Source: Klebsiella phage ST405-OXA48phi1.3
Strand: one strand, 5' to 3'
Sequence record: MK416008.1
DNA length: 32,010 bases
In this document: in pieces, positions 3,991-8,151 of the stretch
Position numbering within the stretch: position 1 is the first letter of the stretch
Layout: each line of letters opens with the position of its first letter
Made by a program: the position numbers and the translations under genes
The notes under the pieces: model-generated
Told to the model about the DNA's origin: nothing
The model's database searches: none
The model's input: the letters and a program-made list of their open reading frames with translations, nothing else

Positions 3991-4341
3991 GCCTGTGATT
4001 AGTCGCTCTTCGATAGCAATGTATGCAGAGTGTATTGACGCTAGCTATGTTTGCAGCATAACGTATTGATGTGGTGAATCCCCCTGTGCGGAGGGGCGAC
4101 CAGTCAGTTACAGAAACCTGTAAATGCAGCGCGGGCCATGCCGGCTGGGGCATGCTCACCGGGAGGCACCCGGCACCATATGCAATGCTACTAAGCTATT
4201 TGGTAGTGGGGTTGCCGTTTCGGCTTCTCCAACTATGTTTAAAAGGCAGTAACGGAATAATGAGCGCTCTCCTGGTAAATCGGTAGCTCGGACTATTAGG
4301 TGCGTATCGAACCGTTACAAAATCAGAATGCCTACCTTTCT

Positions 4342-4368
4342 GCCCGCCCGTTAGAGCGGGCTTTTTTT
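4342..4368 (+). terminator. Intrinsic terminator (GCCCGC-N8-GCGGGC plus T7) closing a 350-nt non-coding stretch.
   Basis: Read directly. No credible CDS upstream of it. Confidence 0.65.
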
Positions 4369-4534
4369 CGCCTGATCAAGGCACTTCAACTAACCAAAAA
4401 CATTTAAGGGCTGTGCTATTGCGCGGCCTTTTTCATTTCAGGCTCACGGGTGGCTCCGTTTAAGGCTTTTCGCTAAATCAGCCCGATGGGCCTGAACCTT
4501 TTCAAACACACAGCGCCATCCGTCATTAACGGAG

Positions 4535-4867
4535 GTGAGGCTTATGCGAATGCCCTACAAACAAGATTTCATCGCCGCTCTGCTGGCAGCTAAGGAGCAG
4601 GGTATCGGCGCAATACTGGCTTTCATCATGGCGTATTTGCGTGGCCGCTATAACGGTGGCGCCATGGCGAAGACGCTGATCGATGCTGTCATGTGCGCGA
4701 TGATCGCCTGGTTCGTCCGTGACCTTCTCGACTTCATTGGCCTGAGCAGCAATCTCGCCTACATCGCCAGTGTCTTCATTGGCTATATCGGTACTGACTC
4801 GATCGGGAGCTTGATTAAAAAAATCGCAGCCAGAAAGGCAGGAGTTGATGATGCTGGAGATCAATAA
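4535..4867 (+). CDS. S: Lambda-type class I holin S with the dual-start motif (Met1-Arg2-Met3).
   Basis: [27 protein letters not shown]...[25 protein letters not shown] matches lambda S ([27 protein letters not shown]...). GGAGGTGAGG SD. Confidence 0.9.
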
Positions 4868-5330
4868 ACAACGTAAAGCGTTTCTGGACATGCTCGCTTG
4901 GTCTGAAGGTACAGACAAAGCGGGGCAGCCGACAAAGAACCGAGGCTATGACGTCATTGTTGGTGGTTCACTCTTTACTGACTACAGCGATCATCCACGC
5001 AAGTTGGTTAACCTGCCAAAGCTGGGTATTAAATCCACCGCATCGGGCCGCTATCAGCTGCTGGCCAAGTGGTGGGATGCATACCGTAAGCAGCTGGGAC
5101 TGAAAGACTTCTCACCGGCGTCGCAGGACCAGGTGGCCCTGCAGCAAATTAAAGAGCGTGGAGCTTTGCCGCTCATTGACAACGGGCAGCTTCTTCAGGC
5201 CATCTACCGTTGCAGCAATATCTGGGCGTCTCTCCCCGGCGCGGGCTACGGCCAGTTTGAGCATAAGGCCAGTAACCTCATCGCAAAATTCAAAGCCGCT
5301 GGCGGCGTCGTAGCGGAAGTTAAACAATAA
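4851..5330 (+). CDS. R: Lambda R-type endolysin (lytic transglycosylase).
   Basis: [22 protein letters not shown]...[24 protein letters not shown]...[18 protein letters not shown] matches lambda R. Its start overlaps the 3' end of S. Alternative in-frame ATG at 4848. Confidence 0.9.
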
Positions 5331-5345
5331 AGCTGAAGGTAACTT

Positions 5346-5522
5346 ATGAACTATCTCATTAATCGGCTGAAAGAGCCGTCAACCTGGCGCGGCATCATCC
5401 TGGTCATTGCTGGCGTATTTGGTTATCAGATGCCTCCGGGCATTCAGGAAACCGTCATCGCTGGCGGTGTGGCGCTGGCTGGCGTTGTTGGTGCGGTGAT
5501 GCCGGACAGCGTTAAGAAGTAA
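5346..5522 (+). CDS. 58-aa small membrane protein with two glycine-rich hydrophobic segments. It occupies the position where Rz/Rz1 normally sit.
   Basis: Translated by hand: MNYLINRLKEPSTWRGIILVIAGVFGYQMPPGIQETVIAGGVALAGVVGAVMPDSVKK. GAAGGT SD 7 nt upstream. Below the 60-aa ORF-track cutoff. Confidence 0.45.
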   Translation: MNYLINRLKEPSTWRGIILVIAGVFGYQMPPGIQETVIAGGVALAGVVGAVMPDSVKK

Positions 5523-5543
5523 GCAGGCTAGTAACAGGCAGGG

Positions 5544-5726
5544 CTACAGAAACCCGCTTTCCTTCAGTTTCTTAGCCAATAAGTAATTGGTGATTACTCC
5601 AAGAGAAACCCCAACAATCCACGGCACAGATGAATCAAGCATTAGTGAGTTGTTCACGTTAATGCTGGCGGTGATGCAGGCATAGGTATTTGTAAAAGCA
5701 AACCATGTAAAAAGTATCTGTTTCAT
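5544..5726 (-). CDS. 60-aa two-TM small membrane protein, convergent with the 58-aa ORF.
   Basis: Internal Met of the 92-aa ORF-track entry (MKQILFTWFAFTNTYACITASINVNNSLMLDSSVPWIVGVSLGVITNYLLAKKLKESGFL). A strong GGAGAT SD lies 7 nt upstream on the minus strand. Confidence 0.45.
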   Translation of the reverse strand: MKQILFTWFAFTNTYACITASINVNNSLMLDSSVPWIVGVSLGVITNYLLAKKLKESGFL

Positions 5727-5876
5727 TTGGTTATCTCCATGCTTTCCATCCCAACAATATCCACCTACGAGCCGGTAAAAGCAAATTGGCGCACAACAAA
5801 GCAGTGCAGGCCAATTGCCCAAACATTACCCCCACCAAGGGATAAGACCAACAATATCCCCACAAAAGGATGAAAC

Positions 5877-6077
5877 ATGACTCCATTAGTTCTTACCGCA
5901 GAGCAAATTAAAGCTCTGGCAGATTTCGTGGAGCAGGACGGCCAACCCGCTTACACGATCTCTCAGGCCAGCATCCCGGAATTTGAAGCTGAAGACGGCA
6001 GCACTGTGCCTGGTTACGAGGGCCTTATCGCTTACTCAGAATCAGAAGAGCACGGCGTACTTCAGCTGGAAGATTAA
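5877..6077 (+). CDS. Small acidic hypothetical protein (66 aa).
   Basis: AAGGATGA SD. A conserved hairpin element follows it immediately. Confidence 0.5.
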   Translation: MTPLVLTAEQIKALADFVEQDGQPAYTISQASIPEFEAEDGSTVPGYEGLIAYSESEEHGVLQLED

Positions 6078-6141: not shown

Positions 6142-6387
6142 ATGTCAGAGATCACCGCATCCGAGCAAATCCGCCTGGATATCATCAAGAAAGTTAACTA
6201 CGACACCGCAGCGGCCAAGCTGGCCATTGACTGGGTAGGCGACAGCTATCTGAAGTCTGAGCTATTTGCAGACTCTTTCGATCGTGTTTTCACGGAAAGC
6301 GAGATTGTCTCAAAGACCCGAAAGGCGATTCAGGAAGCGACTGAAGCGCTGGCGCTGTTTGATACCGGCGCTGAGCAGGCCAGCTAA
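6142..6387 (+). CDS. Small acidic hypothetical protein (81 aa).
   Basis: GAGGT SD. The second hairpin copy follows it. Confidence 0.5.
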   Translation: MSEITASEQIRLDIIKKVNYDTAAAKLAIDWVGDSYLKSELFADSFDRVFTESEIVSKTRKAIQEATEALALFDTGAEQAS

Positions 6388-6432: not shown

Positions 6433-6996
6433 CTATCGCCAAAATGATAGTAACCACAAAAATAATAAGCCAGATGCAGCGCTAATGCCTATCCAGGCTT
6501 TATCGATAGCCCCAGATTGCCATACCTTTGCCGCAAGCATAAAGAAACTTACAAGGCCCGCCAGCCATTTATATTTAGTAGTAGTTTTAATTAGTTGCTG
6601 GCTTTTTAATGTTAATCCAATGATGCAGGTTTGTAATAATCTTGGTAGTTTTCGATAAAGTCGCCCGAAACGCGTTACGCCATATAACTGCATCCAAGTG
6701 TGATCGCCAAATAACACCACTGGATGGATTTCATCTTTTATTACCTTAAGGGTAATAGCTAGTTCAAGTGATGCCTTAATCCTATATGAGCATGCTTGTA
6801 CGACCTGCTTTTCGAAATGAGTTACAGGATTATCGAGTGGTTCACATCCCATTATTTCAAATTTGTCATTTTCTAACCGGGTAGCATAGTTGAGCTTAGA
6901 CAGCTTTTGTTCTATTGCTATATCAATAAAGCGGTTTATTAGGTAACGCCTTATTTCAATTGTGAAATTTTCCTTCATGGTTCCCAAGGCCTTCAT
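6433..6996 (-). CDS. AT-rich moron: hypothetical protein with an N-terminal soluble domain of about 140 aa and two C-terminal TM helices.
   Basis: 187-aa ORF (possibly starting at Met7, 6978). Markedly lower GC than its flanks. C-terminal segments WLAGLVSFFMLAAKVW and AWIGISAASGLLFLWLLSFW. Opposite strand to the late operon. Confidence 0.55.
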   Translation of the reverse strand: MKALGTMKENFTIEIRRYLINRFIDIAIEQKLSKLNYATRLENDKFEIMGCEPLDNPVTHFEKQVVQACSYRIKASLELAITLKVIKDEIHPVVLFGDHTWMQLYGVTRFGRLYRKLPRLLQTCIIGLTLKSQQLIKTTTKYKWLAGLVSFFMLAAKVWQSGAIDKAWIGISAASGLLFLWLLSFWR

Positions 6997-7146: not shown

Positions 7147-8151
7147 ATGGCAAAACCGGACTGGGGCGAGCTTCAGCAACGGTTCCTGTCCGATCATGCC
7201 GCAACCGGCGTATCACCGAAGGATTGGTGTGAAGCGCAGGGACTGAATTACGCTACTGCCCGCCGATACATCAAGAAACCCACTGCGCAAACTGCGCAAA
7301 AACCTGCGCAGAAGAAATTGCGCACTGCGCAAAAGGAAAAGTGCGCAGAAGAGCTGGTGGATGATGATGGCCTCACCGATCAGCAACGTTTATTTGTCGC
7401 AGAATACCTGAAGGACAACAACGCCACGCAGGCCGCTATCCGTGCCGGGTACAGCAAGAAAACTGCTGAACAAATTGGCTATCAGCTGCTTCAGAAAACT
7501 TCAGTTGCGCAGGCCATTGCGCAGCAGCAGAAAGCATCAATTGTGCGCACGCTCGGAAGTGCCGATGAAGTGCTTGAGCAGATGTGGCGCCTGGCCACCT
7601 TCGACGCCAACCAGCTATCACAGTATCGCCGCGGGAGTTGCCGCTATTGCTGGGGCTTCGGTCACCAGTACCAATGGCGTGATGCTGTTGAGTACGAAGA
7701 GAAGCGACTCGAAGCGCTTGAGCGAAAACGTCGCGAGCCCGTCGATGTTGGTGGCTACGGTTACGACCACACCAGCGCACCTAACCCGGAATGCCCTCGC
7801 TGTAATGGCGATGGCATAGGTCAGACTTTCTTCGCCGATACACGCAAGCTGGCGCCGGATGCTGCGCTTGCCTTTTCCGGCGTTAAGCTCGGAAAGAACA
7901 GTGTGGAGATAACCGCTATCAGCCGCGAGCGAATGTTCGAGGCGGTGATGAAACGGCTCGGCCTGGCTGATAGCGAGTTCGCCCAGCGTCTGCAGCTGAT
8001 TGAAATTGAGCGCCGGCAGCTGGAGGTTGAAAAATTACGCAAAGAGCTGGCTGCTGATCCGGAGGATGACGAACCAACGCCAGTTGCAATCAATATCAGC
8101 GTAGTCGATGCACGAGTGAGGGAAGATGATGGCGATAGCACCGACGCTTAA
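7147..8151 (+). CDS. terS: Terminase small subunit (P27/Terminase_2 family) with C-terminal zinc-ribbon-like CxxC pairs.
   Basis: LTDQQRLFVAEYLKDNNATQAAIRAGYSKKTAEQIGYQLLQKTSVAQAI is the Terminase_2 HTH signature. CRYCWGFGH...CPRCNGDG. AGAGGAA SD. Confidence 0.8.
   Translation: MAKPDWGELQQRFLSDHAATGVSPKDWCEAQGLNYATARRYIKKPTAQTAQKPAQKKLRTAQKEKCAEELVDDDGLTDQQRLFVAEYLKDNNATQAAIRAGYSKKTAEQIGYQLLQKTSVAQAIAQQQKASIVRTLGSADEVLEQMWRLATFDANQLSQYRRGSCRYCWGFGHQYQWRDAVEYEEKRLEALERKRREPVDVGGYGYDHTSAPNPECPRCNGDGIGQTFFADTRKLAPDAALAFSGVKLGKNSVEITAISRERMFEAVMKRLGLADSEFAQRLQLIEIERRQLEVEKLRKELAADPEDDEPTPVAINISVVDARVREDDGDSTDA

Follow-up and report, generated by a model that had tools for sequence, protein, structure and literature searches.

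A two-helix membrane protein as alternative occupant of the spanin slot in Klebsiella-group lambdoid prophages

Introduction

Since the spanin census, in which no spanin was found in 91 of 677 genomes (PMC6139136), it has been a standing question by which route the spanin-less phages of Gram-negative hosts pass the outer membrane. In the literature searched, the disruptin of coliphage phiKT was the only alternative to spanins described. The same question is raised by the lysis locus of Klebsiella phage ST405-OXA48phi1.3 (sequence record MK416008.1), of which we analyzed a stretch of 32,010 nucleotides (nt), hereafter called the window. In the window, the genes for a lambda-type holin and a lambda-type endolysin are followed, at the place of Rz/Rz1, by an open reading frame (ORF) of 58 amino acids (aa), named ORF58, and an ORF of 60 aa, named ORF60, lies next to it on the opposite strand. 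A sequence-only reading of this DNA had drawn attention to the two small membrane proteins and had considered a lysis-timing regulator, a type-I-toxin-like peptide under antisense control, and a superinfection-exclusion pair. Here we describe what comparison with related loci, profile searches and structure prediction indicate about ORF58 and its position in the lysis cassette.

ORF58 and Rz/Rz1 alternate behind the endolysin gene

We fetched 69 viral-contig loci via ORF60 and inspected the slot between the endolysin gene and ORF60 in each of them. ORF58 occupied the slot in 41 loci, an Rz of the type found in Klebsiella phage KO-TP1 in 27, and a different overlapped i-/o-spanin pair in one (L125); both ORF58 and a spanin were present in none of the 69 loci, and neither of them in none. 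In KO-TP1 itself, whose holin and endolysin genes are related to those of the window (82% DNA identity), an Rz-like spanin is located exactly at the position of ORF58. The comparison with related prophages proposed in the sequence-only reading therefore came out in its favor, since Rz/Rz1 are replaced at exactly the ORF58 site, as seen in KO-TP1, in the 69 ORF60 loci and in locus L089. ORF58 is an alternative occupant of the spanin slot in lambdoid prophages of the Klebsiella group, which carry either Rz/Rz1 or ORF58 there. The spanin pair of L125 (reverse complement, 1969-2437) is unrelated to the others; its members are an i-spanin-like protein of 116 aa, which has an N-terminal transmembrane domain (TMD), and a lipoprotein of 80 aa with an LCSC lipobox.

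The exchange can be followed at the nucleotide level in L089, where holin S (96%) and endolysin R (92%) are succeeded by Rz with embedded Rz1, an 89-aa ORF and ORF60 (98%). Homology to the window ends at the end of the endolysin gene (5331) and restarts at 5499, within the final eight codons of ORF58. Its terminal ~24 nt (encoding ...MPDSVKK) are kept beside ORF60 in L089 (reverse complement 2452-2500), as well as in L091 and L102. Because these three loci bear Rz/Rz1 together with the ORF58 3' remnant, the recombination junction lies inside ORF58. The alignment indicates that, in the L089 lineage, an Rz/Rz1 block replaced most of ORF58. Near-identical lambda-type S-R cassettes that end in either Rz/Rz1 or ORF58 amount to a natural swap experiment.

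ORF58 is also found behind other lysis genes. With at least 97% protein identity, it follows endolysins of four unrelated families (phrog_181, GH19-like; phrog_7; phrog_315; and phrog_90), and the holins of these cassettes belong to three families (phrog_217, phrog_785 and phrog_126). At all close loci, ORF58 was directly downstream of the endolysin gene, was the last lysis gene, and was never accompanied by a spanin. Its start lies 16 nt past the stop codon of the endolysin gene in the window and overlaps that stop by 4 nt in loci of the L029 type and by 17 nt in Escherichia coli p10A. About half of the 51 close loci fetched via ORF58 itself lack ORF60, and ORF58 then precedes the terminase gene or other non-lysis genes. 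Note that, in the gene calls of the loci, the family gene was forced in despite longer antisense ORFs. Three of 5,426 complete E. coli genomes carry ORF58, and the RefSeq entries (WP_014837649.1 and WP_012967894.1) are named "hypothetical protein". In p10A (L255) and EC7 (L256), at 2502-2678 of either locus, the gene comes after a lambda-family holin and a lysozyme or GH19 enzyme; no spanin is annotated in the ORF58-carrying prophages of the three genomes, and ORF60 is absent from that of p10A. ORF58 is a late lysis-cassette gene, closely coupled to the endolysin gene and presumably transcribed together with it.

These loci also bear on the proposal that the convergent genes ORF58 and ORF60 work as a pair, be it an antisense-controlled type-I-toxin-like peptide or a superinfection-exclusion pair, which would act apart from lysis mechanics. 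The stop codons of the two ORFs are indeed separated by only 21 nt (5523-5543), both products are small and hydrophobic, and late transcription must pass through ORF60 in antisense. However, the two genes assort independently: among the 69 loci, 28 have ORF60 beside a spanin, and ORF60 is missing from about half of the close ORF58 loci and from all distant ones. Furthermore, the ORF60 family is narrow, being found only in Klebsiella, Enterobacter and Kluyvera, whereas the ORF58 family extends across many phyla, and, on the late strand, ORF58 is tied to endolysins. No Rfam RNA family matched at 5300-5900 and neither product matched a Pfam or NCBIfam toxin family, so that the features of a type I toxin-antitoxin system are not seen here. 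We consider a functional pair very unlikely and abandoned this part of the sequence-only reading.

Spanins in the window and in ORF58-bearing relatives

The sequence-only reading had also stated that Rz/Rz1 are missing. When every start codon of either strand was scanned for a lipobox, no plausible lipobox ORF was obtained within the 32 kb of the window, the pattern matches being only antisense or out-of-frame ORFs within larger genes. When the window was searched by tblastn with six spanin proteins from relatives, only chance matches were obtained (E ≥ 0.27), and ORF58 had no spanin PHROG or Pfam match, supporting the absence of Rz/Rz1 from the window. Near ORF58 in the 51 close loci, no lipobox ORF was found either. 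The complete genome of Klebsiella phage vB_VIPKPNMC05 (34.5 kb) has the same endolysin-ORF58-ORF60 block with different holins, its endolysin gene being 89% identical in DNA to that of the window. No spanin is annotated in this genome, and our scans of it gave no spanin homologue or lipobox candidate.

Like a spanin gene, ORF58 lies in the lysis cassette right after the endolysin gene. An i-spanin has an N-terminal anchor and a periplasmic domain that reaches the o-spanin, and ORF58 does not show this arrangement; for the o-spanin, no embedded, overlapping or adjacent lipoprotein gene was found in or near ORF58, in the window, or in the vB_VIPKPNMC05 genome. The statement that the two small proteins are not spanins holds in the sense that neither ORF fits the spanin definition, but it was too strong, since ORF58 is homologous to the anchor of the spanin-like long family members described below.

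Gene and predicted structure of ORF58

ORF58 is preceded by a Shine-Dalgarno (SD) sequence GAAGG (5335-5339), 6 nt ahead of its ATG, and its residues 1-58 matched positions 1-59 of the 68 positions of the phrog_8494 profile (E 8.8e-26). ORF60 has an SD sequence GGAGAT (5738-5733), with 8 nt between GGAG and ATG, and matched phrog_20061 over 1-60 of 60 (E 3.4e-45). Both PHROGs are annotated as of unknown function, and Pfam and NCBIfam scans of the two ORFs gave no match. Among 52 close copies of ORF58, there were 36 distinct DNA versions and only 13 protein versions. Across relatives, the proportion of synonymous differences (pS) in ORF58 was 0.30, as against 0.014 for nonsynonymous ones (pN), giving a pN/pS of 0.046; the values for ORF60 were 0.13, 0.039 and 0.30, respectively. 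These ratios indicate that both ORFs are under purifying selection, ORF58 strongly so. With the PHROG matches and pN/pS values of 0.05 and 0.30, both small membrane ORFs are real, and the sequence-only reading had placed and described them correctly.

The ORF58 protein has two uncharged Gly/Ala-rich segments (residues 16-27 and 36-52), of which the second is 53% Gly/Ala/Ser/Thr; its net charge is +2, and it has no cysteine. An AlphaFold2 model built from a 104-sequence alignment (mean pLDDT, the predicted local distance difference test score, 85.5) consists of a short N-terminal helix and a helical hairpin (H11-27 and H31-51), after which only six residues (PDSVKK) remain. ORF58 is, as modeled, a glycine-zipper helical hairpin of ~55 residues in the inner membrane. 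A Foldseek search of the model against viral predicted structures gave nothing below E 0.7; such a search is uninformative for ORF58 because a two-helix hairpin is too generic.

Distribution and genomic context of the ORF58 family

A profile search of 1.84 billion representatives gave 1,978 clusters (at 50% identity) at E ≤ 1e-3 and 424 at E ≤ 1e-10, and 38 of 40 diverse relatives also matched phrog_8494. The family has an invariant core, R-L-x-E-x-S-T-W-R-G, and small residues in helix 2. We found no Pfam or NCBIfam model for the family, no name for a member from any source, and no paper describing it in the literature searched. In a tblastn search of 50,697 phage records with ORF58 and ORF60, essentially one cultured phage carried them. 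When family consensus queries were used on the same records, about 12 held a member, all annotated as hypothetical, with hosts in Klebsiella, Brevundimonas, Rhizobium, Synechococcus and Microcystis. Genome matches were in Proteobacteria, Nitrospiraceae, Desulfobulbaceae and Phycisphaerales, all diderm, and in one Patescibacteria bin; a homologue in Magnetococcales had an uninformative genomic context. The C-terminal TMD of LysAP from Acidovorax phage AP1 was considered as a fused ORF58 domain and dropped, as the family queries matched no Acidovorax phage.

The linkage to endolysin genes was examined in 85 divergent viral loci, each encoding a distinct family protein. Endolysins of five large clusters (phrog_315, 7, 938, 894 and 465) were located within ±3 genes of the family gene in 46 of the 85 loci and were adjacent to it in 38. 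Further endolysin families (phrog_1493, 181, 90, amidase and others) occurred in the remaining loci, so that roughly two thirds of the sample had an endolysin, from at least eight families in all, within ±3 genes. In a T7-like Rhizobium phage, the family member comes after the lysozyme gene, at the gp3.5 position. A frequent cassette consists of a 73-aa protein with an N-terminal TMD and a coiled coil, a ~56-aa ORF58-like gene and a GH108-type endolysin. Directly upstream of short ORF58-like genes, one of two types of protein is encoded, either a protein of 73-87 aa in which an N-terminal TMD is combined with a charged coiled coil (phrog_462, labelled "lipoprotein") or a protein of 67-79 aa in which a coiled coil is combined with a C-terminal TMD; such proteins are seen in L069 (3777-3998), L208 (2761-2982), L060 (3749-3982) and ~25 similar loci. 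They might serve as holins or as short partners of i-spanin-like type.

In four metagenomic proteins (P0035, P0037, P0039 and P0042), the ORF58 domain is present two or three times in tandem. Such repeats imply that each copy crosses the membrane an even number of times, and therefore the N- and C-termini should be on the same side of the membrane. They also suggest, as far as domain arrangement can tell, that the ORF58 domain self-associates.

Long family members and overlapped lipoprotein reading frames

Family members of 80-153 aa extend the hairpin by an "LPPIELQG.S" motif, a variable low-complexity stretch and a terminal "G[FW][NG]D". In these long members, the 3' half is overlapped by a small +1-frame ORF that ends 13-34 nt past their stop codon. 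The product of the +1-frame ORF has a signal peptide, a lipobox (e.g., L-[TSL]-[GSA]-C), a second cysteine in C-[HRK]-P and a C-terminal C-x-W-x-[YF], with a mature length of ~29-43 aa. A broad lipobox pattern applied over ±1.8 kb had a high background (29 loci on the + strand versus 20 on the - strand), and a position-restricted test was used instead. The strict position-restricted pattern was found in 10 of 28 long-member loci on the coding strand and in none of the 28 on the opposite strand. A looser pattern gave a +1-frame lipoprotein ORF in 20 of the 28 loci, and reading of the frames by eye added L157, L162, L163, L164 and L181, bringing the count to about 25. Long genes with such an ORF include those of L155, L158, L168, L171-L173, L175, L176, L179 and L193. 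It should be noted that "GFGDRD*" in frame 0 and "GSGIGIEC" in frame +1 can share the same DNA, as derived by hand from the codons; if one DNA writes both terminal motifs, only one of the two needs to be selected.

Two-component spanins are recognized by just such an architecture, with an overlapped lipoprotein gene (PMC6139136). No library annotation of the long-member gene pairs as spanins was found, and from their reading-frame layout the pairs look like unannotated spanin-like gene pairs of environmental phages. ORF58 was shown, by sequence comparison, to be homologous to the membrane domain of these long members. The ORF58 family thereby links to spanin-like gene pairs that PHROGs, Pfam, NCBIfam and RefSeq call hypothetical. 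In L172, L173 and L176, recurrent proteins of ~85 aa (N-terminal TMD) and ~142-153 aa (several TMDs) without PHROG matches are encoded downstream of the long genes; these are probably the holins of those cassettes. Lipoproteins of 126-147 aa are also recurrent near long family genes.

The homology to the N-terminal domain of long members raises the alternative that ORF58 is a remnant or minimal i-spanin, anchored by its hairpin and requiring an unrecognized outer-membrane partner from the host or the phage, i.e., half of a cryptic two-component system. Some short members do have a lipoprotein gene at or within ~90 nt of their stop codon (L213 and L221, 61-62 aa; L070, 57 aa), and the invariant core motif suggests a specific interaction. 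On the other hand, the window, the 51 close loci and the whole vB_VIPKPNMC05 genome offer no lipobox ORF as a partner gene, and the six residues past helix 2 cannot reach a partner across the periplasm. Moreover, short forms make up the majority of the family and are therefore unlikely to be remnants. Taken together, we regard this alternative as improbable.

Proposed role of ORF58 in lysis

A holin/antiholin and a soluble endolysin are present in the window, and, compared with its Rz/Rz1-bearing twins, only the outer-membrane step is missing; a substitute for the spanin step was therefore ranked first. Tentatively, and with considerable reserve, we favor the reading that ORF58 is a late lysis protein standing in for the spanin step, as its position and distribution suggest. 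It would act at the outer-membrane step, supplying the last, post-endolysin stage of lysis past the outer membrane without a periplasm-spanning complex. Since the hairpin is too short to span the periplasm, ORF58 would act after wall degradation. Turgor could then push the inner membrane onto the outer membrane once the wall is lost, and oligomers of the Gly/Ala-rich hairpin might, speculatively, destabilize or fuse the apposed bilayers.

A broader version, in which the ORF58 family is a new class of envelope-disruption protein whose short form is a stand-alone hairpin and whose long form is a spanin anchor, has a real chance of being right, though it is less likely than not. If it is true, the short form would explain part of the "spanin-less" phages, which make up roughly 13-15% of those with Gram-negative hosts. 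In such a class, the long form would be an unrecognized type of two-component spanin, in which the hairpin serves as anchor, the periplasmic arm is disordered and the overlapped lipoprotein is rich in cysteine. For the long forms, it makes a difference on which side of the membrane the termini lie, since the C-terminal arm would have to be periplasmic to meet the lipoprotein.

We compared ORF58 with known lysis systems. Like the two-component spanins (lambda Rz/Rz1; Kongari et al. 2018, PMC6139136), ORF58 closes a holin-endolysin cassette, it behaves as an allele interchangeable with Rz/Rz1 in otherwise near-identical cassettes, and the long members of its family show an overlapping lipoprotein gene with conserved cysteines in the product. 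Unlike them, ORF58 has no periplasmic domain, coiled coil, lipoprotein partner or spanin PHROG similarity, and it sits in the membrane by a conserved two-helix hairpin that bears an invariant motif, rather than by a generic single TMD. The disruptin gp28 of coliphage phiKT, as outlined in the preprint (Holt et al., bioRxiv 10.1101/515445), was proposed to replace spanins for outer-membrane disruption, and it resembles ORF58 in being a single small protein in a spanin-less lysis context. According to the same outline, and comparing by description only, gp28 is a cationic antimicrobial peptide, whereas ORF58 is a hydrophobic hairpin with a net charge of +2; its two uncharged helices do not have the character of a cationic antimicrobial peptide. 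Lcc6 of the Shewanella prophage LambdaSo is a small (65 aa) membrane protein of a lambda-like prophage that was unexpectedly required for lysis and acts at the holin level (bioRxiv 10.1101/2024.01.23.576932). It differs from ORF58 in having one N-terminal TMD and a 43-aa cytoplasmic tail, and its gene lies far from the lysis genes in a prophage with nested Rz/Rz1. Lcc6 was rejected as a relative of ORF58 on account of this topology and location and the presence of Rz/Rz1. Spanins, the phiKT disruptin and Lcc6 are the closest concepts, and ORF58 fits none of them.

Several points weigh against a role at the spanin step. The support for it, drawn from sequence, is positional and comparative throughout, and the window stops short of the early region of the prophage. 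ORF58 lacks a periplasmic domain, a lipoprotein partner and cationic amphipathic character, and none of the known routes to the outer membrane applies to it. Lambda without spanins still lyses under some laboratory conditions, and the loss of Rz/Rz1 therefore need not be compensated. In a distant relative (L071), an Rz-like i-spanin gene (phrog_1403, E 5e-31) comes directly after an ORF58-like gene; L071 carries both, and thus an ORF58-like gene and Rz are not always alternatives. In at least 26 environmental loci, the ORF58-like gene lies directly upstream of the endolysin gene, which is the classic holin position. Finally, helix 2, with its 53% Gly/Ala/Ser/Thr, resembles the helices of signal-anchor-release (SAR) proteins and pinholins.

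The last three points equally favor the main rival, in which ORF58 is a holin-level factor, such as a class-II/pinholin-like second holin, an antiholin or a tuner of hole timing, and the prophages have no dedicated outer-membrane step. In this form, the lysis-timing option of the sequence-only reading survives. ORF58 shares with class II holins and pinholin S21-68 a length of ~60-70 aa, two helices of which one is Gly/Ala-rich, and a gene beside the endolysin gene. Being a small, two-helix membrane protein, it gave a single, weak match to a holin family (phrog_34682, "holin", E 0.042); the proteins with two or three tandem copies suggest self-association, and Lcc6 is a precedent for a small membrane lysis factor. 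However, ORF58 had no match to a Pfam holin family, and its tail consists of PDSVKK only, in contrast to the long charged C-terminal tail typical of holins. It also differs from class II holins and S21-68 in coexisting with a complete lambda-type holin and in being located after the endolysin gene. The cassettes already have a complete canonical holin, which in the window is S-type with a dual start: its sequence begins with an M-R-M motif, and because the holin has its own dual-start antiholin motif, a further holin partner is not obviously needed. In addition, long relatives with overlapped lipoprotein genes adjoin other holin-like genes, which lie downstream of them while the endolysin gene is just upstream. 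A holin-level role also leaves unexplained the strict exclusion of Rz/Rz1 (41 versus 28 loci, with both in none). We therefore rate a holin-level role as somewhat unlikely, although it deserves to be kept in view; even then, ORF58 would define a widespread, unnamed family of lysis genes.

ORF60 as a separate gene

Since ORF60 is located beside either ORF58 or a spanin, and ORF58 often occurs alone, ORF60 is an independent module. It is a self-contained moron rather than a partner of ORF58. Its product is hydrophobic at the N-terminus, and KKLK comes after its C-terminal TMD. The conserved Cys17 lies within NT[YF]AC, which is not a canonical lipobox because of the Asn at -4 and the aromatic residue at -2, and the stretch from Cys17 to the TMD is only ~20 residues. 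Despite its C-terminal TMD, ORF60 does not resemble a unimolecular spanin of the T1 gp11 type, and it was rejected as such (u-spanin) on the grounds of its length, its opposite strand and its co-occurrence with Rz/Rz1-type spanins in 28 loci. A 92-aa extension from a TTG start (5544-5822) was also rejected, as the homologues and the SD sequence favor the 60-aa ATG start.

The ORF60 homology block common to Rz-bearing relatives spans 5499/5541-5785, including 59 nt upstream of the ATG. Within it, a weak candidate promoter (TTGCTT, 17 nt, GATATT; Table 1) was read from the sequence. A consensus promoter scan listed no ORF60 promoter; the candidate was not listed because only 7 of 12 consensus positions match. 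The conserved block ends at 5785, just outside the candidate -35 hexamer. It is probable, going by this candidate, that ORF60 has its own weak promoter, and ORF60 is most likely expressed from the prophage.

In its location, ORF60 resembles lambda bor, a lysogenic-conversion gene that also follows the lysis cassette directly, on the opposite strand and antisense to late transcription. The bor product is a lipoprotein of 97 aa, whereas ORF60 has no Pfam or NCBIfam match and no canonical lipobox; the likeness is one of position only.

Neighboring features of the window

The features of the lysis region are given in Table 1. By analogy with lambda, the two terminator-like hairpins upstream of the holin gene would be the tR'-type site at which Q antitermination of the S-R-ORF58 late transcript is expected. 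On the + strand between 4431 and 6989, no terminator-like site was found.

Table 1. Features in and around the lysis cassette of the window
Feature	Position	Strand	Remarks
DUF1440 membrane protein, 208 aa	3318-3944	+	phrog_25162 E 1e-129; just upstream of the late promoter region
STnc100, gammaproteobacterial small RNA	4040-4207	+	Rfam, full-length match, 77.4 bits (gathering score 47)
Two intrinsic-terminator-like hairpins	stems 4342-4361, 4406-4431	+	each followed by a T run; upstream of holin gene
Holin, lambda-S-family	4547-4867	+	PF05106 E 1.3e-29, phrog_126 E 2e-38; heads the late lysis cassette
Endolysin, lambda-R-like	4851-5330	+	phrog_90 E 8.5e-60; without N-terminal signal-anchor
ORF58, 58 aa	5346-5522	+	third and last lysis-cassette gene, in the Rz/Rz1 slot
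ORF60, 60 aa from ATG	5544-5726	-	convergent with the late operon
Weak candidate ORF60 promoter	5756-5784	-	TTGCTT, 17 nt, GATATT
phrog_9518 gene	5877-6077		small conserved phage gene downstream of ORF60
DUF2560 gene	6142-6387		small conserved phage gene downstream of ORF60
187-aa ORF, hydrophobic C-terminus	6433-6996	-	no PHROG, Pfam or NCBIfam match
334-aa ORF	7147-8151		conserved in relatives

The 334-aa ORF was used as a putative terminase-small-subunit marker when the loci were read. The STnc100 match is located between the DUF1440 gene and the late-operon terminators. The DUF1440 protein is 93-100% conserved in many related prophage loci, and its gene looks like a moron.

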